A stretch of 61,410 bases of DNA from Elusimicrobiota bacterium (lineage in GTDB: Bacteria; Elusimicrobiota; Elusimicrobia; UBA1565). The stretch covers positions 1 to 61,410 of the forward strand of contig DMEZ01000013.1 in NCBI GenBank assembly GCA_003450735.1, read 5' to 3'. A program made the position numbers and the translations under genes. Below the pieces are notes generated by a model, which saw nothing but the letters and a program-made list of their open reading frames with translations, was not told where the DNA came from and made no database searches. Shown here piece after piece: positions 1 to 49,736 of this stretch (position 1 is its first letter; each line of letters starts with the position of its first letter).

Positions 1-1110
1 GACACGCCCGACCCGCCCGGCGGGCGCATCGAGCGCGGCCCCGGCGGCGAGCCCTCGGGCGTATTGCGCGAGGAGGCCATGGCGCTGGTGGAGAGCCTGC
101 TCCCGGAAAACAGCCAAGAGGAGCTGATGGAGGGCGCCCGGCGGGCCCTCAAGATGGCGGCCGGCTTCGGACTCACCGCGCTCCACGAGGCGGCGGCCGA
201 TGAGAAGACGCTCGCGGCCTACGCCGAGCTCGAGCGCCGCGGAGAGCTCACCGCCCGCGTCGACGCCTCCTTCCAGCTCGACCCCTCCAGCGGCGTCCCG
301 GACCTGGAGGCCCTGCGCGCGCGCCATCAAGGGAAGCTCCTGCGCCTGACCGGGGGGAAGATCTTCGCCGACGGCGTGCTCGAGGCCCGCACCGGCGCAG
401 TCCTCGAGCCCTATGTCGGCCGCGGCGGGCTCGGCACGGCGCTCTGGGACCAGAAAGCCTTCGATGAAGCGGCCTCGGAGCTCGACCGCCGGGGCTGCCA
501 GGTCCACGTGCACGCGGTGGGCGACCGGGCCGTGCGCATGGCCCTCGACGCGGTGGCCGAGGCCCGCCGGCGCAACGGCCCTGGCGGGCCGACGCACGAG
601 ATCGTCCACCTCGAGCTCATCGACCCCTCAGACCTGCCCCGCTTCAAGGCCCTGCGCGTCGCCGCCGGCTTCCAGCCGCTCTGGGCCTGGCGCGACCCCT
701 ACATCACCGACCTCACCGAGCCCGTGCTGGGGCCCGAGCGCTCCGCGCGCCTCTACCCCCTGGGCTCGGCCCTGCGCGCCGGAGCCCTGCTGGCCTGCGG
801 CAGCGACTGGTCGGTGAGCTCCATGAACCCCTGGGAGGCCATCCAAGTCGGTGCGACCCGTCGGGGCTTGGAGGAGGGGCCCGGTCAGGCCTGGCTGCCG
901 GGAGAGACGCTCCCGCTCGACGAGCTGCTGCGCTGCTACACGACCGGCGGGGCTTTGGCCGGAGGGCTGGACGCCGGGGCTCTCGAGCCGGGCAAGCCGG
1001 CGGACTTCATCGTGCTCGACCGCGACCCGTACCGCACGCCCCTGCACCAGCTCAAGGCCGTGAAGGTGCTCGAGACTTATCTGGAAGGACGCCGGGTCTA
1101 CTCGGAGTAA
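1..1110 (+). CDS. Amidohydrolase-family metal-dependent hydrolase (amidohydrolase 3 / YtcJ-like), 5'-partial; the frame is open to base 1
   Basis: ORF 64..1110 continues in-frame to position 1 without a stop. C-terminal motifs HVHAVGD, ACGSDWSV and KPADFIVLD are typical of the amidohydrolase TIM-barrel family. Confidence 0.7.
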   Translation, partial: DTPDPPGGRIERGPGGEPSGVLREEAMALVESLLPENSQEELMEGARRALKMAAGFGLTALHEAAADEKTLAAYAELERRGELTARVDASFQLDPSSGVPDLEALRARHQGKLLRLTGGKIFADGVLEARTGAVLEPYVGRGGLGTALWDQKAFDEAASELDRRGCQVHVHAVGDRAVRMALDAVAEARRRNGPGGPTHEIVHLELIDPSDLPRFKALRVAAGFQPLWAWRDPYITDLTEPVLGPERSARLYPLGSALRAGALLACGSDWSVSSMNPWEAIQVGATRRGLEEGPGQAWLPGETLPLDELLRCYTTGGALAGGLDAGALEPGKPADFIVLDRDPYRTPLHQLKAVKVLETYLEGRRVYSE

Positions 1111-2831
1111 GCGTAGAAGTACGGCAGTCCCAAAAAGCCCAGCCCCGCGACGTTCTCCTCGTTGCCGCAGCCCTTCACGCCCGCGCGGCAGGCCTCGAAC
1201 TCGGCCGGGGAGTAGGTCCAGATCTGCGGGACGTCCTCCTGGGCCCGGCGCAAGACCTTCGCCCAGGCCCGGCGCCGGGCTTTGGGATCCTCCGACGACG
1301 CCGCCTCGTCGATGAGAGCGTCGAGCCCGGGGCTGGAGTACCCCTGCCGCCGGGCGAGCCGGCCTCCGCTGTGGAGGAGCGGGTAGGCGAACGCGGCGAG
1401 GTCCGGGATCTCCGCGCTGAAATCCGCGACCGCCAAGGGCAGGGTGCGCGCGTCCAGCTCCCGCCGCAGGCGCTCGCGCTCCATGGGATGGAGGCGCGCC
1501 CTGAACTGCGGGCCGAGCGATTCGAGCCCCGCCTGCAGGACCCTCGCCGCGACCAGCTCCGCGGGGGAGCCGGCGTCGAAGGCGATGGGCAGGACGAAGC
1601 CCTTCCTCCAGAGAGCGCCCCCGCGGACACCCTTGAGAAGAGCCGCCGCGCGGGCGAGGTCCTTCTTCCAGCGCGGCCTGGCCGCGGTCTCCAGGAGGGC
1701 CGGCGGGAACGGGCCGTCCGTGCGCCGGCCCGAGGAGCCCAGGGCTTCCCGGTGGTAGCGCTCGTAGTCGAAGAGGAAGGAAAAGGCCTGGCGCACGGCG
1801 CGCTCGGCGAAGAGATCGGCCGGCAGGCCCTTCCCGTCCAGCACGCCGGAGCCCACGAAGGGCGAGGCGCTGGAGACGCGGAGGTTGAAGAGCACGAGCT
1901 TCCCCAGGCGCCCGAGCGGCGGGCTTTCGGCCCAGCGGATGCCCGGGTAGCCTTTCGCTCGGCGGGCGAAGGCGTCCTCCATGTCCGCGGCGTCCGCGTC
2001 TGCGGCCTCGAGGCGGAGGATGCGCTCCCCGGCGCTGGGCACCACGCGCAGGGCGGCCCTCCGCAGGGCCGCGGGCTTGCGCCAGTAGCCCTCGTGGCGG
2101 GCGAGCAAAGCATCCCCGGAGTCCGCCTTCTCGAGCCGGTAGGGGCCGGTGCCGTTCATGCGAGCGTCCAAGGGGCTCTTCGCGGGCCGCTCGGCGAGAC
2201 GGGCGTACCAGTCCGCCTCGCTCCCGTCCCAGTCGCCCTGGGCGAGAGCCCAGTCCTTGGAGGTCATGACGGGCATGGAGGCGATGAGCTTGAGAAGGAG
2301 CGGGACGGGGCGCTTGAAGCGCAGGACGAGCGCCCCCTTGCGGGCTTCGACCGCATCGAAGGCGGCCTTGAGCTCCGAGGCCGGCAGGACGCGGGGGTCC
2401 GGGCTGTCCGGCCGCCCCGCGAGGAGGCCGAGCAGGATGGAGGCGGCCGAGCCCTCGTCGGCGTAGATCATCGCCCGGAGGAAGGAGTAGCGCACGTCCT
2501 CGGCGCTCAGCTCGGAGCCCCCGTGCAGGCGCACGCCCTTGCGCACGGGGAAGGCCGCGACGAGGCGGTCTTCGGAGAGCAGGCCGTTCTCATGGGAGGG
2601 GATGTCCTCGGCGAGGAGCGGGAGGAAGACCTCCGACTGCCGCTCGCCCAGGAAGGCGAGGAGGGGCTCGTAGACGTTGCCGGCCAGCAGGAAATCCGAA
2701 GCCTCCGCCGTCCGGGCCGGGTCCATGCTCGTCCAGGGGCGGTCGAGCAGGTAGGTGAAGGTGCCCGTGTCCTGGATCTGCGCCGAGGCGGGGAGCGCGA
2801 AGGCCAGCAGGGCCGCGGGGAGCGCTCTCAT
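1098..2831 (-). CDS. ABC transporter substrate-binding protein, family 5 (peptide/nickel SBP-like), secreted
   Basis: A 577-aa product from an internal ATG (MRALPAALLAFALPASAQ signal peptide). Size and overall architecture fit SBP_bac_5. The N-terminal 23 aa of the longer ORF look non-coding. Start overlaps the upstream gene's stop as ATGA. Confidence 0.6.
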   Translation of the reverse strand: MRALPAALLAFALPASAQIQDTGTFTYLLDRPWTSMDPARTAEASDFLLAGNVYEPLLAFLGERQSEVFLPLLAEDIPSHENGLLSEDRLVAAFPVRKGVRLHGGSELSAEDVRYSFLRAMIYADEGSAASILLGLLAGRPDSPDPRVLPASELKAAFDAVEARKGALVLRFKRPVPLLLKLIASMPVMTSKDWALAQGDWDGSEADWYARLAERPAKSPLDARMNGTGPYRLEKADSGDALLARHEGYWRKPAALRRAALRVVPSAGERILRLEAADADAADMEDAFARRAKGYPGIRWAESPPLGRLGKLVLFNLRVSSASPFVGSGVLDGKGLPADLFAERAVRQAFSFLFDYERYHREALGSSGRRTDGPFPPALLETAARPRWKKDLARAAALLKGVRGGALWRKGFVLPIAFDAGSPAELVAARVLQAGLESLGPQFRARLHPMERERLRRELDARTLPLAVADFSAEIPDLAAFAYPLLHSGGRLARRQGYSSPGLDALIDEAASSEDPKARRRAWAKVLRRAQEDVPQIWTYSPAEFEACRAGVKGCGNEENVAGLGFLGLPYFYAYSE

Positions 2832-3529
2832 GGCATATCCGAAGTCAGCTTGGTGCCGCTCCGGTCGTACATCACGGTCTTCATGCTCATCCCGCCCCAC
2901 GAGGAGAGCGCCCCGCCCTGGACCGCGAGGGCGAGCATGGCCCGGTCGAGGCCGTCCACGGAGAGGCCGCGCACGTAGTTGCGGCCCAGGTTGTAGATCT
3001 GCTGGAACCAGAGCGTGTCGCCCGAGGCGTCCAGGTGGAGGATGCGCGCGGGGTAGCTGCCGTCGCTGAGGACGCAGGAGCCGGCGACCCAGGCCTCGCC
3101 CGCCTCGTTGGCCGCCGCGTAGGACGCCTCGCAGCCCGGGGCCGTGGTGTCCGAGCGCTCCCAGAGATAGTCCCCCGAGGGCGAGTACTTCATCATCCAG
3201 AAGTAGCGGCTCCCCTGCCAGAGCCGCATGCCGGCCAAGAGGATGCCGCCGCGGGGGTCGAGGGCGAGCGCATTGGCGTGCTCTTGGTAGCCGTCCGAGT
3301 GGGTGCGCTCCCAGAGCAGGCTGCCCGTTCCGTCGATATAGGTGATCCGGAGGGAAGTGTTCTGCCCGTCGAAGAGGCTCATCGCGCTGATCGAGTTGCC
3401 GGCGCTGTCGAAGACCTGCAGTAGCCCGCCGTCCTGCCCGCCGATGCTCGCGGCGCCGAAGCAGGGGGGGCGCGCGCAGAGGAGCGCGAGGGCGAGGGCG
3501 AGGGCGGCGGTCTTGAGCGGGAGGCGCAT
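2828..3529 (-). CDS. Secreted beta-propeller repeat protein (SBBP-like repeats)
   Basis: Signal peptide MRLPLKTAALALALALLCA. Repeated DG(S/T)LLWER / GDYLWER / GDTLWFQ motifs resemble Solibacter-type beta-propeller (SBBP) repeats. ATGA overlap with the SBP gene. Confidence 0.5.
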   Translation of the reverse strand: MRLPLKTAALALALALLCARPPCFGAASIGGQDGGLLQVFDSAGNSISAMSLFDGQNTSLRITYIDGTGSLLWERTHSDGYQEHANALALDPRGGILLAGMRLWQGSRYFWMMKYSPSGDYLWERSDTTAPGCEASYAAANEAGEAWVAGSCVLSDGSYPARILHLDASGDTLWFQQIYNLGRNYVRGLSVDGLDRAMLALAVQGGALSSWGGMSMKTVMYDRSGTKLTSDMP

Positions 3530-3599
3530 GGCTTCCCAGGATTTCAGCAATTTCCTCGAAGCCTTGCCAGCGGGAGCTCTCAAGGGCTATGCTCTATGC

Positions 3600-4778
3600 G
3601 TGAGTCCGCGCCTGCTTTTCCCGGCCCTGCTCCTGCTGGCCGCCTGCTCCAAGGGCTCCGCCCCCGTCGTCGGCCGGCCGGCCCCGGAGTTCAAGCTCGA
3701 CAAGGTCCTGCAGGCCCCGGTCGAGCGATTCGAGGGCTGGAAGAGCCTCCAGGGGAAGGCGGTCGTGCTCGAGTTCTGGGACACCGGCTGCGTCTCCTGC
3801 GTGGACGCCATCCCGCATCTCAACGACCTCGCCGAGCGCTTCAAGGACCGGCCCGTCGTGTTCCTCTCCGTGACCAAGGACGACGAGGAGACCGTGCGCG
3901 CCTTCCTCAAGGGCCGGCCCATGCGCGGCTGGGTGGGCCTCGACTTGGCCAAGCGCGCCTACGACGCTTTCCGCGTCCGCGCCGTGCCCCGCACCTTCAT
4001 CGTCGACGCCGGCGGGCGCCTGGTGGCCGACACCTACCCCGGCATGCTCGACGCCGAGACCCTCGAGAAGGCCCTGGCCGGGGCTCTCATCGAAGCCCCC
4101 ACCGACGCGCAGAAGGAGACGGCCGCCCTGCGCGCCATGCTCGGCCTGCAGGACGAGGAGCCGCTGCCCGCCCTCCTCGTGCGCGTCTCGCCGACGCGGC
4201 CCGGAGCCGACGGCGGCAAATACGGCCCGGGCCTCTTCAAGCAGTTCGGCATCACCTTCGAGGACATGGCGGCCTACGCCTACGAGGGGCGCAGGGGGCG
4301 AGTCGATTTCCGTTCCACCCGGGCGCTGGAGCGCTGCGACGTCCTCCTTTATTCCGCGGGCGCCGACGAAGCGCGCAAGCGGCGCCTCATGGGAGAGGCC
4401 CTGCAGACGCTCTTCCCGCACAAGGCGCGGCGCGAGGCCCGCACGGTGGACGTCTACCGCCTCGTGATGCGGGCCGGCCCCGCCCCGGGCCGCCGCAAGC
4501 CGGCCGACACGGACGTCATGGGGGGCGGGGGGAAGAAGGGCTCCGGCAGCCTCAAGTACAAGAACACCCCGCTAAGCTGGCTCGCCTCGGGCTTGGAGCG
4601 GGAGCTCGAGCGGCCCGTCTTCGACAAGACCGGCTCCAAGGAGAGCTTCGACTTCGAGATCGTCTGGGACGCCGGAAAGAAGGGCGCCCTCGAGAAGGCC
4701 CTCGACCCCATCGGGGTGCGCCTCATCCCCGCCAAGGCCCCGGTCGACTACCTCGTGGTCGAGGAGGAGCGCCCGTGA
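3600..4778 (+). CDS. Lipoprotein: TlpA-like thioredoxin/redoxin domain (CxxC) fused to a C-terminal TIGR03435-like 'soil-associated' domain
   Basis: GTG at 3600 gives MSPRLLFPALLLLAACSKG (lipobox LAAC). Redoxin motif WDTGCVSC plus RAVPRTFIVD. C-terminal ~230 aa carry DKTGSKESFDFEIVWD, which resembles the TIGR03435 signature. The true start is uncertain; the ORF extends to 3342 but would overlap the divergent gene. Confidence 0.55.
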   Translation: MSPRLLFPALLLLAACSKGSAPVVGRPAPEFKLDKVLQAPVERFEGWKSLQGKAVVLEFWDTGCVSCVDAIPHLNDLAERFKDRPVVFLSVTKDDEETVRAFLKGRPMRGWVGLDLAKRAYDAFRVRAVPRTFIVDAGGRLVADTYPGMLDAETLEKALAGALIEAPTDAQKETAALRAMLGLQDEEPLPALLVRVSPTRPGADGGKYGPGLFKQFGITFEDMAAYAYEGRRGRVDFRSTRALERCDVLLYSAGADEARKRRLMGEALQTLFPHKARREARTVDVYRLVMRAGPAPGRRKPADTDVMGGGGKKGSGSLKYKNTPLSWLASGLERELERPVFDKTGSKESFDFEIVWDAGKKGALEKALDPIGVRLIPAKAPVDYLVVEEERP

Positions 4779-5509
4779 GGCGGGGGCTGCTCCTCGCCGC
4801 GCTGCTGCCCCTGCAGGCGTGCCTCTACACCCATCACCGGGAGAAGGCCGCCCTCGCCCCCCAGGAGAGAGCGGTCTCCGGCGGCCTGCGAGCGGGAGAC
4901 ATCCTGGCGGACTGCTTCGTCTACCGCTCCTCCGAACTGCCCCTCTCGGCCTTCTTCCGGCGCCTGGCCAAGGGCGAGTTCGACAAGGCTCTCCAGAGCA
5001 TCCGCCTGCGCTACGAGCCCTCGGCCCACGACGGGAAGGCGATGAAGGCCCTGCTCAAGGCGCGCTTCGTGCCCGTGCTGGTGCGCGCGCGCAACGAGGG
5101 CTCCGCTTCCGCCGACCTCGGCGCCGTGCGCTGGACGCTCCACAGCGCCGACGGCGTGCTCGACCCCATCCCGCCCGCGGAGCTGCCCAAGGCGCTCGAA
5201 GGCGTTCACTGGCCCGCGGTCGCGGCCAACGTGTACAACACGACCGTCGTGGTGGTGGGCTACACGGCCGTGCTGGCCGCCATCGCCGCGACGGTCTACT
5301 ATGGAGGGAACGGCCCCATCCCCGCGGAATTCCTGTCCCTTCCCGAGCGGGATGCGGTATGGAACCCGGTCAAGAAGACCTTGGACCTCGACTACCAGGA
5401 CTTCCTGCTGCGCGGCGGGACGCTGGCCCCCGGCGAGAGCCGGCAGGGCCTGCTCTTCTTCCGCCTGAAGGGCAAGGACTGGGGAGGGCTCGCCCTCCAG
5501 GCAGGGTGA
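4775..5509 (+). CDS. Lipoprotein of unknown function
   Basis: GTG start overlapping the upstream stop (GTGA). MRRGLLLAALLPLQAC lipobox. Contains an internal hydrophobic segment TTVVVVGYTAVLAAIAATVYY. No domain recognised. Confidence 0.45.
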   Translation: MRRGLLLAALLPLQACLYTHHREKAALAPQERAVSGGLRAGDILADCFVYRSSELPLSAFFRRLAKGEFDKALQSIRLRYEPSAHDGKAMKALLKARFVPVLVRARNEGSASADLGAVRWTLHSADGVLDPIPPAELPKALEGVHWPAVAANVYNTTVVVVGYTAVLAAIAATVYYGGNGPIPAEFLSLPERDAVWNPVKKTLDLDYQDFLLRGGTLAPGESRQGLLFFRLKGKDWGGLALQAG

Positions 5510-5510
5510 C

Positions 5511-6197
5511 ATGATCGGGATCCTGGCGGCGGCGGTCGGCATCTCATCGGCGACCCTGGTCTGGCAGCCCTCGCACCAGACCGACACGGGGGAGGCCTAC
5601 GACGAGTCCGCGGTGTGCGGAGGCATCGTGGACGCCGCGATGGCCGCCGCGCCCGCACTTCAGGAGCACAGGGTCTGGAGCCGCGGAGTGAAGAACCTGC
5701 ACCACGCGGACTCCGGCACCAACACCCTCATCGCCCACACCTCCGCGCTGGTCGGGGGGAGGAAGTCCGGCTACGCCTACGAGCTCGACCTCTCCAACGC
5801 GCTCAAGCCGCTCGTCTTCGTGGGCGTGCACAACAACGGCGGCACGAAGCGCCACGCGGTCTGGGCTTACGTCCACGACGGCGACAGGCACGAGGCGCAG
5901 AGCCGCCGGCTGGCCGCGCTCCTCCTCGAGGAGGTCGCGGCCGCGACCGACCTGCAGGATCGCGGGACGCACCTCGACAGCTCCACGGGCCGCAACGACT
6001 ACCGCTGCAGGGCCACCGGCAAGCTGGCGTTCTACAGCATCGACGAGAACGTGAACGCCGCCCCTTACCGGGTACTCATGGAGATCGGCGACCTCGACGC
6101 GAGCCGGGAGTTCCTGCAGGACCCGGCCAACCAGAAGAGGCTGGGCGAAGCGCTCAAGCGCGGGGTCGCGAGGTTCCTGGAGAGCCTGCCCCGATGA
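5511..6197 (+). CDS. Zinc amidase, Amidase_3 (MurNAc-L-alanine amidase)-like with a divergent N-terminus
   Basis: NLHHADSG resembles the AmiA SIHADA motif. VLMEIGDL...LGEALKRGVARFL resembles the AmiA VLVETGF...LAEAIYKGLRNYF tail. The canonical DAGHGG motif is absent and possibly replaced by SHQTDTGEAYDE. N-terminal hydrophobic segment present. Confidence 0.4.
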   Translation: MIGILAAAVGISSATLVWQPSHQTDTGEAYDESAVCGGIVDAAMAAAPALQEHRVWSRGVKNLHHADSGTNTLIAHTSALVGGRKSGYAYELDLSNALKPLVFVGVHNNGGTKRHAVWAYVHDGDRHEAQSRRLAALLLEEVAAATDLQDRGTHLDSSTGRNDYRCRATGKLAFYSIDENVNAAPYRVLMEIGDLDASREFLQDPANQKRLGEALKRGVARFLESLPR

Positions 6198-7114
6198 GAG
6201 CCCTGCTGCTCCTCGCCGCGCTCTGCGCGTGCTCCCGCCAGGAGGACACGATGAAGACCTATTCGGCGGACGGCCGGCTCCCCATCGAGAAGCTCTTCGA
6301 GGCCCAGGACACGCTCCTGCGCTCGGGCCGCTGGGAAGTCGAGACGGTCTTCGATGACCGAGGCCTGCCCTCGCGCGTGTTCCGCACGAAGAAGAAGGGC
6401 CCGGCCCTCTGGGTGCTGGCCGGCATCCACGGCGAGGAGCCGGCCCCGCCCAACGCGGTGGCCCAGAACATCGAGAAGTTCGACGCCCTCGCAAGAAAGG
6501 GGATCCCGGTCGTGCTCTTCCCGCTCTGCAACCCCGTCGGCTACGTGAAGGCCTGGCGCTACCCGGACTCGGAAGGGCGCTCGGGGACCGGGCACAGCGT
6601 GGGCGACAGCGACCATCTGCTCCCGGACAAGGCGGGCAAGCCCCGGGCCATGAAGGCGACGTCCGCCCAGGCCGGCGCCCTGACCGCCAAGGTGCTCGCG
6701 CTCTCCAAGGACTATCCGCCGGTCCTCTCGGTCGACCTCCACGAGGACGACTCCATCGCGAAAGGCTACCTCTACTCCCAAGGCCCGAAGGGCCGGCAGG
6801 ACCCCGCGGCCAAGGCCATCATCGCCGAGATGGACCGCCTGGGCTATCCGGTCCAGCTGACGGGGCAGACCAGCTTCGACGAGATCATCGTCGGCGGGGT
6901 CATCTCCGGCGTGCAGGACGGCTCGGTGGACGAGCTCATCGCGGCCCGCGAGATCCTCGTCGACGGGGCGAGGCGCCCGGGGCCGGGAGGGAAGTCCGTG
7001 GTCGTCGTGGAGACCAGCACCATGAAGGCCCCCATCTCGGAGCGCCTGCGGGTGCACGACGCGGTCTTAAAGATGCTGGAGAAGCTCTACCAGGAGACGA
7101 ACTCGTCCTTCTGA
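6194..7114 (+). CDS. M14 zinc carboxypeptidase-like / AstE-AspA family lipoprotein (MpaA-like murein peptide amidase candidate)
   Basis: ATGA overlap with the upstream gene. MRALLLLAALCAC lipobox. Zinc-site motifs WVLAGIHGEEP (HxxE) and VDLHED. Confidence 0.55.
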   Translation: MRALLLLAALCACSRQEDTMKTYSADGRLPIEKLFEAQDTLLRSGRWEVETVFDDRGLPSRVFRTKKKGPALWVLAGIHGEEPAPPNAVAQNIEKFDALARKGIPVVLFPLCNPVGYVKAWRYPDSEGRSGTGHSVGDSDHLLPDKAGKPRAMKATSAQAGALTAKVLALSKDYPPVLSVDLHEDDSIAKGYLYSQGPKGRQDPAAKAIIAEMDRLGYPVQLTGQTSFDEIIVGGVISGVQDGSVDELIAAREILVDGARRPGPGGKSVVVVETSTMKAPISERLRVHDAVLKMLEKLYQETNSSF

Positions 7115-7467
7115 GCGTAGTCCTTGAGGTGCCAGACGACGCCTTCCCGGTCCGTGAAGAAGTAGACCTTCCCCGAGGCGTTCTCCGCCGTCCTGTCGAT
7201 GGGGAAGCCCAGTTCCTCCTCGATGAACCTCTTCGCGCCGGAGCGGCGCAGGCAGGGCTGGCAGATGCCCGAGGCGGCGGGGGGAGAGGGAACGGCGCGC
7301 TTCTTGACCTCCACGCAGAGGCCCTCGGGGCTGATGAACATGGCGGTGCCGGCCGCGTCCACGACCTTGTGGCGCCCGCCGCCGAAGAGCTTCACGAGGA
7401 AGAGGCAATAGGCCGGCACGTCCTTCACGTGAGCCTCGATGTGGTCGAACGACGCGGTCAAAACCAT
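7087..7467 (-). CDS. VOC/glyoxalase-bleomycin resistance family protein
   Basis: A 126-aa product. Size and composition fit a VOC-fold protein. Convergent 28-nt overlap with the upstream gene. Confidence 0.45.
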   Translation of the reverse strand: MVLTASFDHIEAHVKDVPAYCLFLVKLFGGGRHKVVDAAGTAMFISPEGLCVEVKKRAVPSPPAASGICQPCLRRSGAKRFIEEELGFPIDRTAENASGKVYFFTDREGVVWHLKDYAQKDEFVSW

Positions 7468-45142: not shown

Positions 45143-46393
45143 ATGCCCCTGAAAAGAAGCCGGAACGCCGACGCCGAAATCCGGGCCCTGCGGGCCCAGC
45201 TCGCCCGCGAGCGCTCCCAGAGCCGGCGCCGCGCGGAGCTCTTCGAGAAGGCCATCCAGACCAACGACCTGCGCGAGGTGGGCGAGGAGATGTACCGCTA
45301 CTTCTTCAGCCACTTCGGCGTCTACAAGGGCGACATCACCATCCTGACCGACTACGACGAGCGCGAGTTCTACGACCTCGTCGGCTGGACGCCCCGCCAG
45401 GACACGCCCTCCCCCGAGGAGCTGCTGCGCCTGGCGACCCAGCACTGCGAGTACCTGCGCAGCCTCGTCGAGGAGCAGATCTTCATCGGCTACAGCCCCG
45501 ACGAGGAGCGGGAGATCAAGGAATCCTACCTGGTCGAGCAGAGCATGCTCGAGAGCATGGTCACCAAGGCGCCCCGCCTCGTCAACGACGTGCTCTGTGA
45601 GCTCTCGGCCAAGGAGATCGAGGAAGCCAAGAAGCAGCAGACCCGCTCCTGGCTGAACTGGACGGTGCTCCACCCGGACAACTCGAAGCTGCTGGCCAAG
45701 ATGCACATGTCCTTCCGCAAGGCCCGCAAGCGGACCCTCGCCGAACTCACGCGCCAGCTGCGCCCCTTCGAGAACCTGCTCGGCTACCGCATCCTGCACA
45801 CCCGGGACTTCAAGCGGGTCAAGTACCTCTCCGAGCGCGACGCCCTGACGGGGCTCTACCTGCGCCCCACGCTGGCCAAGCGCTGGGACTACGCCGTGGA
45901 CCACGGCTCGCGCGGCCGCCGGAAGGCCGCCGTCAGCGTGGCCATGCTGGACCTGGACCTCTTCAAGCGCTTCAACGACAACTACGGGCACGAGGTGGGA
46001 GACCGGGTCCTGCGGCACTTCGCGCAGTCGGTGCAGTCGGCCCTGCGCGGGACCGACGTGGTGGGCCGCTACGGCGGCGAGGAGTTCGTGGCCCTCTTCC
46101 CCGGCGCCGACACGGGCGGGGTGCTCACCATCCTCAAGCGCATCCACGAGCGCATCAAGGACGTCAACTTCCTGCCGCCCGCGGCCTGGGTCGCGGGCGC
46201 CACGCCCGAGCACCTGCGCTTCAGCGCCGGCGTCTTCACCCTGGAGCCCGGCCGCAAGGACGCGAAGCCCAGCTTCGACGAGGCCATCAAGGCCGCCGAC
46301 GAGCTGCTCCTCTACTGCAAGCAGTCCGGCCGCAACGCGGCCGCCTACCGGGACTCGGCCGGCCGCATCCGGCGCTTCCGCTTCGAAGACTAG
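45143..46393 (+). CDS. Diguanylate cyclase (GGDEF domain) with an N-terminal domain of unknown function
   Basis: GGEEF motif RYGGEEF. GGDEF signatures FKRFNDNYGH and DALTGL. 10 nt downstream of the flotillin gene. Confidence 0.8.
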   Translation: MPLKRSRNADAEIRALRAQLARERSQSRRRAELFEKAIQTNDLREVGEEMYRYFFSHFGVYKGDITILTDYDEREFYDLVGWTPRQDTPSPEELLRLATQHCEYLRSLVEEQIFIGYSPDEEREIKESYLVEQSMLESMVTKAPRLVNDVLCELSAKEIEEAKKQQTRSWLNWTVLHPDNSKLLAKMHMSFRKARKRTLAELTRQLRPFENLLGYRILHTRDFKRVKYLSERDALTGLYLRPTLAKRWDYAVDHGSRGRRKAAVSVAMLDLDLFKRFNDNYGHEVGDRVLRHFAQSVQSALRGTDVVGRYGGEEFVALFPGADTGGVLTILKRIHERIKDVNFLPPAAWVAGATPEHLRFSAGVFTLEPGRKDAKPSFDEAIKAADELLLYCKQSGRNAAAYRDSAGRIRRFRFED

Positions 46394-46413
46394 CGGACCG
46401 CGCTGGAGCCGTC

Positions 46414-47307
46414 ATGCTATCGCCGATCCGCATATCCCCGAGCCTCGCGGCGCTCCTGCTCGCTCTGCCGGCGCATCCGGCCGCGCCGCAGCCGTCCACG
46501 ACCGAGATTATCCATACCGGTCATCTCATCGTGGATGATCATGAAGTCCCGCCGCCCTACAAGGTCGAAGCGATCGGGGAGATTGTCCTGCTGAACGGCA
46601 TCCAGATCTACCCGCACAAGCCCACGCCCTCCGAGATCGCGGAAAACGCCGAGAAGCAGGAGGCGAGGAAACTGCTGGACTCGCTCCACGAGGAGTTCGA
46701 CAAGATTGAGAAGCTGGAGGGGCATGAGAAGGCCGTCGACCAGCTAAGAATGGAATTGAGGAAACATCCCAAGTACAAGAACTTTTCAATCGAAGAGACG
46801 GATGGGGGTACCAGAGTCGATCTTGGGATGGGTAGCGATGATGCACTGGAGCATAGCTACTTCTTTCGATTCATGGGTAAGAAATATCGTCAATTTAATG
46901 ACAGTCACAGAGGTCCACTAATCGATCCAGGCTTAGGAATAGGGGACATCATCGAAATCGCAGTAAATCGGGTACTACTGGACCCTCTATTGCGGCTGGC
47001 TAGAGCAATCCTCGGAATCAAGATACAAAACGAAGAGAACCACCCCGGTTTCGCCAGCAAGACTATCCAAAGCGAGTTTAACTCGGTTACACATCCTTTG
47101 GGAACCAAGGGCTGCGTAGTGGTATTGGAAGGGCATTTATATTGGACAACCAAATTTAAAGCCAAGTTCGCTTGCGATGAATACTTGAGGGTCGTCCACA
47201 ATAAAACCACTATGGATGCCGCATGGAAAAACCTGCGCTATCATTTCGTGGACTCAGACTACATGGAGAAACATCTGCGGCGATACCTGAAAGCCAAAGG
47301 CAGATGA
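46414..47307 (+). CDS. Secreted hypothetical protein; the 3' two-thirds of the gene is compositionally anomalous (low GC)
   Basis: Signal peptide MLSPIRISPSLAALLLALPAHPAA. No domain recognised. GC drops sharply from about 46740 onward. Confidence 0.4.
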   Translation: MLSPIRISPSLAALLLALPAHPAAPQPSTTEIIHTGHLIVDDHEVPPPYKVEAIGEIVLLNGIQIYPHKPTPSEIAENAEKQEARKLLDSLHEEFDKIEKLEGHEKAVDQLRMELRKHPKYKNFSIEETDGGTRVDLGMGSDDALEHSYFFRFMGKKYRQFNDSHRGPLIDPGLGIGDIIEIAVNRVLLDPLLRLARAILGIKIQNEENHPGFASKTIQSEFNSVTHPLGTKGCVVVLEGHLYWTTKFKAKFACDEYLRVVHNKTTMDAAWKNLRYHFVDSDYMEKHLRRYLKAKGR

Positions 47308-47518
47308 TACATTCACGACGGGATACCGCTTGCCGTTGTTCGAGCTTCCGCCCCGCCGATAGGCGGGGACGAAGCCGCGCGCCCGAGGCGCGTAAAAAGC
47401 GCCTTTTCGACGGATCGGATCGCTCTATCCCATCTCTCGATCGTTGAACATGCAAACATTCTTCAAGGAGCGAGTCGCTCTCCCATCGATCAACCCTGTC
47501 TACTCCGACTTATAACCA

Positions 47519-47550
47519 CCTGTTCCGGCTCCATCCTGTTCCGGCTCCAT
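47519..47550. repeat. 16-bp perfect tandem duplication (CCTGTTCCGGCTCCAT x2)
   Basis: Read directly from the sequence. Confidence 0.9.
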
Positions 47551-47600
47551 CTTCTCCCGTGGGGGGGACTACTTGGAAATAACGCTTAAATAATAAGCCA

Positions 47601-47628
47601 AATCAACATCGTCCGGACGATGTTGATT
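47601..47628. repeat. Perfect 28-bp palindrome (AATCAACATCGTCC|GGACGATGTTGATT)
   Basis: Read directly from the sequence. Lies in the low-GC intergenic island between 47307 and 47919. Confidence 0.9.
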
Positions 47629-47918
47629 GTGCTGAAAAAATAAGCGGAATCTCAGAGGGGTGGGGGGGGCAGCCGTTCTCCCGGAGTCTCAACAACCCAT
47701 GAGGATCCCCTCATGTACCGATAGCATCGCAAGCGTTGGCACTCTTTCCACTCAAACGACCGGCACCCCGCCGGAACCGATGCGGACATCCCCGCTTGAA
47801 AGCCCAATCGCCTAGGCCCCCGAGCCCGACCGGCCCACTGCGCAGGCCCATTAGGCCCAGCGTGTTTTCAGGCCCCTAGCCCCTGTCGGCGCCCGCCTGA
47901 CGCCGCTACACTCAAGAC

Positions 47919-49736
47919 ATGAAGCGGTCACTGGGCCTCCTCCTCGCCCTCCTCCTCTCGGCGCAGACCTCGCAGGCGCAGTTCGTGCAGAGCGCGGCCG
48001 CCCTCGCGGCCCCGAAGGCCGGCGTCGCCCTCCCCGCGGGCCTGGCCTTGCCGCAGGTCGCCGCCCCCGGGCTCCTCAGCCCGCTCTACGCTCCGAACCT
48101 GAACCTCGGCCTCCCTCTGCCGGCCGCCCCGCTCGCGGCGCCGAAGGTTTCGGCCCCGGCCAAGGCCCAGGCCCCGCGCGCCCTGCTCAAAGAAGCCCCC
48201 ATCCCCGCGTCGCCCCTAGGCGACGCAGGGACGGCGCGAGCGGAGAACGGCCAGCGCGCCGCGACCGTCCTCGAGCAGCTCCAGCAGGTCCAGGCCCCCG
48301 CCGCCGAGGCCGCCTCGCCCGAGCGCATCGAACAGCTCTACAACGGAGGGGTGAAGCCGGAGGCGTCCGCGGCCGAGGCCCTCGAGGCCCCGGAGGTCGA
48401 GGAAGGCCTGCCGCTGGGCTGGGTCCGCAAGGAGCAGGCCAAGAGCCGCTCGGTGGACTCGAGGACCGCCAGGCTCCAGCGCAAGGCGCAGAGCCGGGGC
48501 TTCTCCAGGGCCGCCCTGAACCCCGAGGTGCTCAAGCGCCACAACGCCCATTACACGCACGAGGTCCCGGTCGGCGAGGTCACCGACCAGAAGTCGTCGG
48601 GCCGCTGCTGGATCTTCGCCGGCCTGAACATGATCCGCTCCATGATGCTCGCCGAGGGGCGCATCGGAAAGGACTTCGAGTTCTCGCAGAACTACCTTTA
48701 CTTCTTCAGCCAGCTCGAGCAGTCGAACCGCTACCTCGAGCAGGTCATGAAGGCGGCCTATGAGCCGGGCTCGGTGAAGCACATCCCGCGCGACCTCCAG
48801 ATGATCGCCCCCAGCGTCGAGGACGGCGGGCACTTCGAATACCTGCAGTTCCTCGTCGGCAAGTACGGCCTCGTCCCGAAGAGCGCGATGCCGGAGACCA
48901 AGAGCTCGGGCGCGACGGACGGGCTCGACGGCGAGCTCAACTACAGCCTGGGCATCACCGTGCGGGAGTTGCTCGAGGACGCCCGCGCCCTCGAGAACGG
49001 CCGAGGCCCCTCCCGCGCGCGTGAGATCCGGGAGCGGGGGATGGACCGCGTCTGGAAGATCCTGGCCGCGCACCTCGGCACCCCGCCCGAGCGCGTCTCC
49101 CACCCCGTGAAGGGCCGCAAGCGCTCCTTCACGCCCCAGCGCTTCGCCAAGGACTTCGCCGGCTACCGCCTAGACGACTACGTCCACGTCACCGCCTACC
49201 CCTACGAGAAGCAGGGCGTCGCGGGAGAGGAGGACGACAGCTCGATCGGCGCCGCCACGCGCGGCCACCGTGCCCGCAACGTCAAGGCCCTCAACGTGAG
49301 CCTCGACCGGCTCGAGCGGCTGGCCCTCGCGGCCCTCGAGGGCGGCCAGCCCGTCGACATCTTCGCCTCCATGAAGCGGGACATCAGCGGGAAGACGGGC
49401 ATCATGCACCCCGCCGTCTTCGACCGCGCCGCGGTCTACGGCTGGTCGGCCGAGCAGGAGCGTGAGAAGCTCACCCGCGCCCAGGGCGTCTCGCTGGGCC
49501 TCAACGGCCCCGACCACCTCATGATGCTGACCGGCTTCGACCGGCCCGACCCGGAGAAGCCCGTCGTCAAGTTCAAGGTCGAGAACTCCTGGGGCCCGAA
49601 GATCGGCGACCACGGCGTCTTCCACATGTACCGCGAGTGGTTCCGGCAGAACCTGTTCGGCATCGTCGTCCACAAGAGCTTCCTATCCAAGGCCGAGCGC
49701 AAGGCCTGGGAAGCCGCCAAGAAGAACGCGGACTGA
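47919..49736 (+). CDS. pepC: Peptidase C1B (aminopeptidase C / bleomycin hydrolase)-like cysteine peptidase with an N-terminal signal peptide and Ala/Pro-rich extension
   Basis: Active-site QKSSGRCWIFAGLNM. C-terminal catalytic region NSWGPKIGDHGVFHM. A signal peptide and ~150-aa low-complexity N-terminal region precede the catalytic domain. Confidence 0.75.
   Translation: MKRSLGLLLALLLSAQTSQAQFVQSAAALAAPKAGVALPAGLALPQVAAPGLLSPLYAPNLNLGLPLPAAPLAAPKVSAPAKAQAPRALLKEAPIPASPLGDAGTARAENGQRAATVLEQLQQVQAPAAEAASPERIEQLYNGGVKPEASAAEALEAPEVEEGLPLGWVRKEQAKSRSVDSRTARLQRKAQSRGFSRAALNPEVLKRHNAHYTHEVPVGEVTDQKSSGRCWIFAGLNMIRSMMLAEGRIGKDFEFSQNYLYFFSQLEQSNRYLEQVMKAAYEPGSVKHIPRDLQMIAPSVEDGGHFEYLQFLVGKYGLVPKSAMPETKSSGATDGLDGELNYSLGITVRELLEDARALENGRGPSRAREIRERGMDRVWKILAAHLGTPPERVSHPVKGRKRSFTPQRFAKDFAGYRLDDYVHVTAYPYEKQGVAGEEDDSSIGAATRGHRARNVKALNVSLDRLERLALAALEGGQPVDIFASMKRDISGKTGIMHPAVFDRAAVYGWSAEQEREKLTRAQGVSLGLNGPDHLMMLTGFDRPDPEKPVVKFKVENSWGPKIGDHGVFHMYREWFRQNLFGIVVHKSFLSKAERKAWEAAKKNAD

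Follow-up and report, generated by a model that had tools for sequence, protein, structure and literature searches.

Close to the start of a 61,410-nucleotide (nt) stretch of DNA from an Elusimicrobiota bacterium (contig DMEZ01000013.1; the whole stretch is referred to here as the window), four consecutive genes, g1 to g4, follow one another from position 3600 to position 7114 and encode a thioredoxin-fold protein, a rare lipoprotein, a peptidoglycan amidase-type enzyme and an M14/AstE-type enzyme. The locus raises the question of whether these four genes constitute a dedicated system in which peptidoglycan-processing enzymes are linked to a periplasmic redoxin, as a sequence-only reading had proposed, or whether independent genes simply share an operon. 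The latter is the likely answer: g1–g4 are best understood as a lineage-specific Elusimicrobia operon in which four envelope proteins with independent distributions are co-expressed.

Arrangement of the four genes

g1, 3600–4778, plus strand: start GTG 3600, stop TGA 4778; 392 amino acids (aa); TlpA/ResA-like redoxin with a DUF3738/TIGR03435 domain
g2, 4775–5509, plus strand: start GTG 4775, stop TGA 5507–5509; 244 aa; rare lipoprotein
g3, 5511–6197, plus strand: start ATG 5511, stop TGA 6195–6197; 228 aa; Amidase_3-fold enzyme
g4, 6194–7114, plus strand: start ATG 6194; 306 aa; M14/AstE-AspA-type enzyme

Direct reading of the sequence shows the junctions exactly as they had been described: g1 and g2 share a GTGA overlap (cgcccGTGAgg at 4775), g2 and g3 are separated by a 1-nt gap at 5510 (gggTGAcATGatc at 5507–5513), and g3 and g4 share an ATGA overlap (cccgATGAgag at 6194). 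Independent gene callers found the same four genes on three assemblies of the same organism; in one of the three, g1 starts at ATG 3528 instead of GTG 3600; with that choice, g1 would reach into the start of the divergent gene (3529), and 24 more residues would precede the signal peptide. The unit is bracketed by opposite-strand genes, a divergent one at 2828–3529 (minus strand) and a convergent open reading frame (ORF) at 7087–7467 (minus strand). Because its stops and starts overlap or abut and opposite-strand genes lie on both sides, g1–g4 are very probably transcribed as one unit in this organism. The three lipoboxes noted earlier are readable in g1 (LLAAC), g2 (PLQAC) and g4 (AALCAC) and form plausible lipoprotein signals, within MSPRLLFPALLLLAAC in g1, ...LLPLQAC in g2 and MRALLLLAALCAC in g4. 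The N-terminus of g3 is short, uncharged and hydrophobic, and its homologues carry ordinary signal peptides.

Distribution across genomes

The proposal of a coupled, undescribed system does not survive comparison across genomes. When one genome of each GTDB species was scanned by pattern, 242 g3 relatives came to light; 80 loci were retrieved together with as much as 8 kb of flanking sequence on either side. No g1, g2 or g4 was detected near g3 in any of the 80 by tblastn (1e-5), and profile hidden Markov models (HMMs), built for the redoxin half and the DUF3738 half of g1 and for g2, g3 and g4, placed DUF3738, g2 or g4 within ~8 kb of g3 in none of them. A generic thioredoxin-fold ORF occurred in only 6 of the 80 loci, at least 3 kb away, and clustering the neighbors of the g3 loci revealed no universal partner. 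The usual Elusimicrobia home of g3 (13–17 loci) is an NlpC/P60 gene on the minus strand followed by the order Chalcone_3, PAP2, g3, response-regulator/HisKA; one example (L084, 4551–9852) comprises NlpC/P60+Peptidase_C39_2 (minus strand), a Chalcone_3-like gene, a PAP2 phosphatase, the g3 homologue and the response-regulator/HisKA gene. That the present locus is a disrupted form of this ancestral block was considered and rejected, the Chalcone_3–PAP2–g3–response-regulator/HisKA block being absent from the 61-kb window.

The contexts sampled for the other genes are equally unrelated. A 67%-identical g2 homologue lies between agmatine-deiminase-type and deoxyhypusine-synthase-type genes and a 38%-identical one directly after a ParE toxin gene, while a 50%-identical g1 homologue is found between acetate kinase and sodium:solute symporter genes and a 37%-identical one after a gene for a TonB-type outer-membrane protein; in these two contexts for each of g2 and g1, no operon partner was seen. 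The six sampled contexts of g4 all differ from one another and include neither a redoxin+DUF3738 gene nor a g2 homologue nor an Amidase_3 gene. The full g1-g2-g3-g4 order was encountered only in the three assemblies of this one organism. In a sister lineage, g2 and g3 are probably still neighbors, as their homologues P0122 (76% identical to g2) and P0002 (87% identical to g3) are both reported on one 2,465-bp contig; a homologue of g4, P0125, is 79% identical.

Because the genes stand together in only one Elusimicrobia lineage, they look like a local cluster of the ordinary kind and not like a new conserved system. The earlier proposal had been made to depend on the amidase and M14 assignments as well as on co-conservation of the genes; the assignments hold (see below), whereas co-conservation fails. 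Acidobacteriota, where conservation was to be sought, proved to be the wrong place to look, the host being an Elusimicrobia metagenome-assembled genome (MAG). The locus would thus represent four exported-protein genes strung together, each of which is independent and stand-alone elsewhere, and their juxtaposition would most likely reflect shared regulation of envelope-maintenance genes rather than an obligate multi-protein machine. On this understanding, g1 would probably supply or remove disulfides in envelope proteins generally, g2 would probably be a structural or accessory beta-sandwich lipoprotein, g3 would be an Rv3717-like Amidase_3 enzyme that probably cleaves the bond between N-acetylmuramic acid (MurNAc) and L-Ala, and g4 would act as an exported M14/AstE-type carboxypeptidase or deacylase.

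The amidase-type enzyme g3

By sequence comparison, g3 reaches Amidase_3 (PF01520) at 31.4 bits against a cutoff of 27, with residues 92–220 aligning to model positions 60–173, the C-terminal half only; it matches no NCBIfam model. Single-sequence and profile searches of the PDB were too insensitive, their best match being Cwp6 at E 0.09. Given this insensitivity and the narrow, half-length Amidase_3 match, the structure of g3 was predicted. The model (predicted local distance difference test (pLDDT) 87.7) has the Amidase_3 alpha/beta fold and matches Rv3717/Ami1 (top), Cwp6, CwlV and AmiC in Foldseek with E-values of 1e-11 to 1e-7; the top 14 structural matches are all peptidoglycan amidases, and the Amidase_3–activator complexes 7rag (CwlD–GerS), 7tj4 (LytH–ActH) and 8c0j (AmiB–EnvC) are found among the matches. 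H22 (after beta1), E32 (at the start of alpha1), H107 (in VHNN) and E191 (in LEIGD) are invariant in 119/119 homologues; by position, the first three are putative Zn ligands and E191 the putative catalytic Glu. With a Pfam score above cutoff, a matching fold and a full set of metal-binding and catalytic residues, the original Amidase_3-like assignment is well founded, and g3 probably cleaves the MurNAc–L-Ala bond.

Compared with the solved Amidase_3 enzymes (Rv3717/Ami1, CwlV, CwlD, Cwp6, AmiA/B/C, LytH and PlyPSA), g3 is only 11–21% identical and differs by family-specific invariant insertions, WS..HH..GSNT, DSSTGRNDYRC and FYSLDEN. It has only two cysteines: C166, which none of the 119 homologues lacks, and C36, which is retained by 98 of them and replaced by Ala or Ser in the other 21. 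C166 (motif GRNDYRC) lies outside the canonical Amidase_3 site. Like Rv3717/Ami1, g3 is a single secreted catalytic domain. PMC9929850, citing Prigozhin 2013 and Kumar 2013, describes Rv3717 as consisting solely of a catalytic domain, which hydrolyzes peptidoglycan fragments under the control of a disulfide beside the active site. As g3 is a bare catalytic domain without a wall-binding module, it may, by analogy with Rv3717/Ami1, act on soluble or locally exposed muropeptides. At 100% identity, g3 is matched by a hypothetical protein from an Elusimicrobia MAG (locus tags DCM05_). Its family is rare and patchy, with ~1000 proteins among 5.8 billion, yet members from Elusimicrobia, Bacteroidota, Gemmatimonadota and Dadabacteria share ~60% identity.

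The M14/AstE-type enzyme g4

The assignment of g4 to the M14/AstE-AspA group is upheld by AstE_AspA_cat (27.3 bits against a cutoff of 25, residues 69–125 only) and by an HxxE...H...E zinc site, whereas the Peptidase_M14 model itself stays below threshold (12.9 against 21.6). H79, E82, N113, R122, H183 and E273 are conserved in 118/118 homologues and R151 in 115 of the 118; judged from their spacing, which also underlies the assigned equivalence with carboxypeptidase A, the zinc site and the carboxylate-binding Arg appear complete. The description of g4 as MpaA-like applies at the superfamily level only. A profile of the g4 family finds the Shewanella structures 2qvp, 3ieh and 3b2y as the nearest in the PDB (E 4e-10 to 2e-7, ~180 residues) and, weakly, CPA2/CPB (~2e-3) and Csd4 (4wcm, E 0.0095), and no MpaA chain is among its PDB matches at E<=10. 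Thus, g4 shares superfamily and zinc-site logic with the gamma-D-Glu-meso-diaminopimelate amidase MpaA and with the M14 DL-carboxypeptidases Csd4/Pgp1 without a specific relationship to either; moreover, g4 is exported, whereas MpaA is cytoplasmic.

Against NF052223, the Shewanella-type N-acetylornithine deacetylase model, g4 scores 26.9 bits with a cutoff of 400 (E 2.5e-6). The function of this group is derived from SO_3749, which replaces ArgE genetically (argE complementation; PMC3219624). Judging by name, length and organism, 2qvp, 3ieh and 3b2y would be orthologues of SO_3749; a literature search on these three structures found nothing functional. The enzyme g4 shares the GxHGEE...NPxG...HED motifs with the SO_3749 group, but these proteins are cytoplasmic, whereas g4 is an exported lipoprotein that is ~30 residues longer and has a conserved N-terminal DGR segment. 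Homologues of g4 number 434 and occur in Elusimicrobia, Acidobacteriota, Eremiobacterota, Steroidobacteraceae and one lineage of the candidate phyla radiation. The conserved arginines point to a substrate that exposes a free carboxylate, which could belong to a C-terminal residue or to an N-acyl amino acid. The probable reaction of g4 is the removal of such a residue or of an N-acyl group from a small periplasmic substrate that bears a carboxylate; one candidate is the peptidoglycan stem peptide.

The redoxin–DUF3738 protein g1

All models expected for g1 score above their cutoffs, in agreement with the domains first ascribed to it: AhpC-TSA (54.4 bits) and Redoxin (40.6 bits) over residues 24–155, and DUF3738 (49.1 bits, cutoff 22) and TIGR03435 (48.8 bits, cutoff 40) over residues 201–389. 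The N-terminal domain matches the structures of ResA (4nmu, E 3e-12), CycY, DsbE and TlpA, and carries the active-site residues C64-V-S-C67 together with the cis-Pro P130; CxxC and cis-Pro are found in 101/101 aligned members of the family. The protein falls far short of the equivalog cutoffs for the ResA subfamily (61.6 against 170 bits), DsbE (33.5 against 123) and TlpA (24.5 against 230). It resembles TlpA, ResA and CcmG in its CxxC, cis-Pro and export, but its surroundings contain no cytochrome-c or copper-maturation genes.

The fusion of a redoxin to TIGR03435, which had seemed unusual, turned out to be common. With E<=1e-30 as the limit, an exhaustive HMMER search returned 400 cluster representatives; of the 150 best, almost every one is a protein of ~380–430 aa whose alignment runs from roughly residue 10 to residue 390. 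Among ten g1 homologues sampled with Pfam, Redoxin+DUF3738 was present in all seven of ~400–550 aa (six single-copy, and P0270 with a second DUF3738), two of 808 and 829 aa were tandem versions, and the tenth (P0278, 1164 aa) contained thioredoxin-fold domains only. Named homologues, for example in Phycisphaerae, are called 'TIGR03435 family protein'; a literature search on DUF3738 and TIGR03435 found nothing functional, and a metagenome scan with g1 gave a single partial thioredoxin match without context. Thus, g1 is an ordinary member of a widespread, self-contained two-domain family, its sole oddity being a CVSC preceded by Gly: the motif (window 3789–3800, residues 64–67) reads G-C-V-S-C, and 80 of the 101 family members have W-C-[GA]-P-C. 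This CVSC variant may have a shifted redox potential.

The rare lipoprotein g2

Neither Pfam nor NCBIfam contains a significant model for g2, the match to DUF4352 in Pfam being not significant, and only four homologues were found among 5.8 billion sequences. A structure model built from four sequences is of low confidence (pLDDT 57.9). At residues ~150–176 (window 5222–5302), all four homologues conserve a hydrophobic stretch of ~27 residues, AANVYNTTVVVVGYTAVLAAIAATVYY, where the confidence of the model drops below 50; this could be a membrane-inserted hairpin or helix. As a lead only, g2 is possibly a DUF4352/MPT63-like beta-sandwich interrupted by the hydrophobic stretch, and it is this extra mid-protein segment of ~27 residues that distinguishes it from DUF4352-type beta-sandwich lipoproteins such as YjhA, YcdA and MPT63. 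The idea that g2 is a dedicated amidase activator was discarded as unsupported: elsewhere, g2 homologues have no adjoining amidase and g3 homologues have no g2.

Alternative explanations

Several points weigh against regarding the locus as a mere co-expression unit. The translational coupling points to co-expression in fixed proportions, a pattern more usual among partners than among unrelated genes, and the neighborhoods sampled for g1, g2 and g4 were few (2, 2 and 6 contexts). In addition, a BCP/PrxQ-type peroxiredoxin is fused N-terminally to a g4-type domain in one lineage, in three closely related exported proteins of 444–457 aa (P0149, P0150 and P0152; loci L089/L090, 8001–9362), and the disulfide control of Rv3717, as given in the passage cited above, has a potential counterpart in the invariant C166 and mostly conserved C36 of g3. 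Together, the fusion, the Rv3717 disulfide and the g3 cysteines leave room for a real link between redox proteins and enzymes. By analogy with the disulfide control of Rv3717, the cluster could be a redox-gated periplasmic muropeptide-processing unit. Its switch would be a regulatory disulfide at Cys166 of g3 that the TlpA-like domain of g1 reduces or forms, and a thioredoxin-fold partner would serve the g4-type M14 enzyme, which would explain the peroxiredoxin fusion; we consider this reading very unlikely. The fusion does not provide strong 'Rosetta-stone' evidence and was set aside as such, since its redoxin belongs to a different subfamily from g1 and it represents a single evolutionary event: the fused domain has a TPGCT peroxidase motif and no detectable similarity to the TlpA-type domain of g1 (E 0.4), and an unfused orthologue, P0133 (L095, 8001–8966), in the same syntenic position indicates that the fusion is recent and occurred once. 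The fusion gene starts 1 nt after a response-regulator/HisKA gene.

More broadly, the operon might be a dedicated periplasmic stem-peptide-trimming module, in which g3 would release the stem peptides, g4 trim them and g1 gate or maintain the enzymes via their cysteines, while g2 would be a lipoprotein adaptor or activator comparable to GerS (for CwlD) or ActH (for LytH). The tight coupling of the four ORFs, the intact active sites of both g3 and g4, the conserved Cys pair of g3 and the separate case of a thioredoxin-fold peroxiredoxin joined to a g4-type domain would all fit, as would the amidase–activator complexes among the structural matches of g3, its top match to the single-domain, disulfide-controlled, muropeptide-acting Rv3717, and the divergent gene for a peptide-binding protein of the SBP_bac_5 family that adjoins the operon. 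The module is nevertheless improbable: co-conservation is nil at the 80 g3 loci and the sampled g4, g2 and g1 contexts hold no partner, the fused redoxin is BCP/PrxQ and not of the CxxC TlpA type, the replacement of C36 in 21/119 homologues means that any disulfide is not obligatory, and the constant presence of DUF3738 as a partner domain within g1 itself suggests that g1 functions in a self-contained way. A little less improbable is that g3 and/or g4 scavenge non-self substrates, such as environmental muropeptides, N-acyl amino acids or poly-gamma-glutamate-like polymers, and that the operon works with the neighboring SBP_bac_5 binding protein and an Amidohydro_3 enzyme as a nutrient-acquisition cluster. 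Both of these genes lie immediately upstream, the nearest characterized group to g4 is the Shewanella N-acetylornithine deacetylase family, with Shewanella proteins of matching size as the closest solved structures, g3 lacks a wall-binding domain, and the rarity, patchiness and cross-phylum identity of the g3 family fit a transferred accessory function better than core cell division. By contrast, 14/14 top structural matches of g3 are peptidoglycan amidases, the NF052223 score implies that g4 is not a deacetylase orthologue, the SBP_bac_5 gene is on the opposite strand with no adjacent permease in the window, and it does not lie beside g3 or g4 homologues elsewhere, a related binding protein occurring in only 2/80 g3 loci, several kb away.

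If a redox link were nonetheless real, the family-wide Cys166 would mark a previously unrecognized subfamily of redox-regulated amidases, and thiol control of a peptidoglycan amidase would have a second case, outside mycobacteria. On the favored reading of a lineage-specific co-expression operon, the locus would contribute new, uncharacterized members of known families and define no new system. Its practical value lies in three well-delimited uncharacterized families. One is a compact, secreted branch of Amidase_3 whose members share an invariant extra cysteine, another is made up of several hundred exported M14/AstE-like proteins, and the third is the widespread Redoxin+DUF3738 architecture.

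Flanking genes and sequence context

Sigma-70-like promoter match, 3564..3593, plus strand: TTGCCA-18-TATGCT, in the 70-bp divergent intergenic region

This match was the one promoter-type site found in the divergent intergenic region, against 0.1 expected from shuffles, and it is a match to the sigma-70 consensus only. As it ends 6 nt before GTG 3600, the g1 transcript may have a very short leader or be leaderless.

Directly upstream of the operon lie the SBP_bac_5 and Amidohydro_3 genes. Positions 1098–3529 (minus strand) encode a 233-aa lipoprotein without a Pfam match, which overlaps by 4 nt with the 577-aa SBP_bac_5 peptide-binding protein, an orphan in that the window has no permease genes adjacent to it. 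On the other side, the minus-strand ORF at 7087–7467 (126 aa) has a glyoxalase/VOC-like N-terminal motif and overlaps the 3' end of g4 by 28 nt; no Pfam match is recorded for it, and other g4 loci contain no counterpart of it. Scanning the window for Rfam families and tRNA genes gave no hits. The G+C content of the window is ~70%, and it falls to 0.59 at 46001–48000, compared with about 0.68–0.70 elsewhere.

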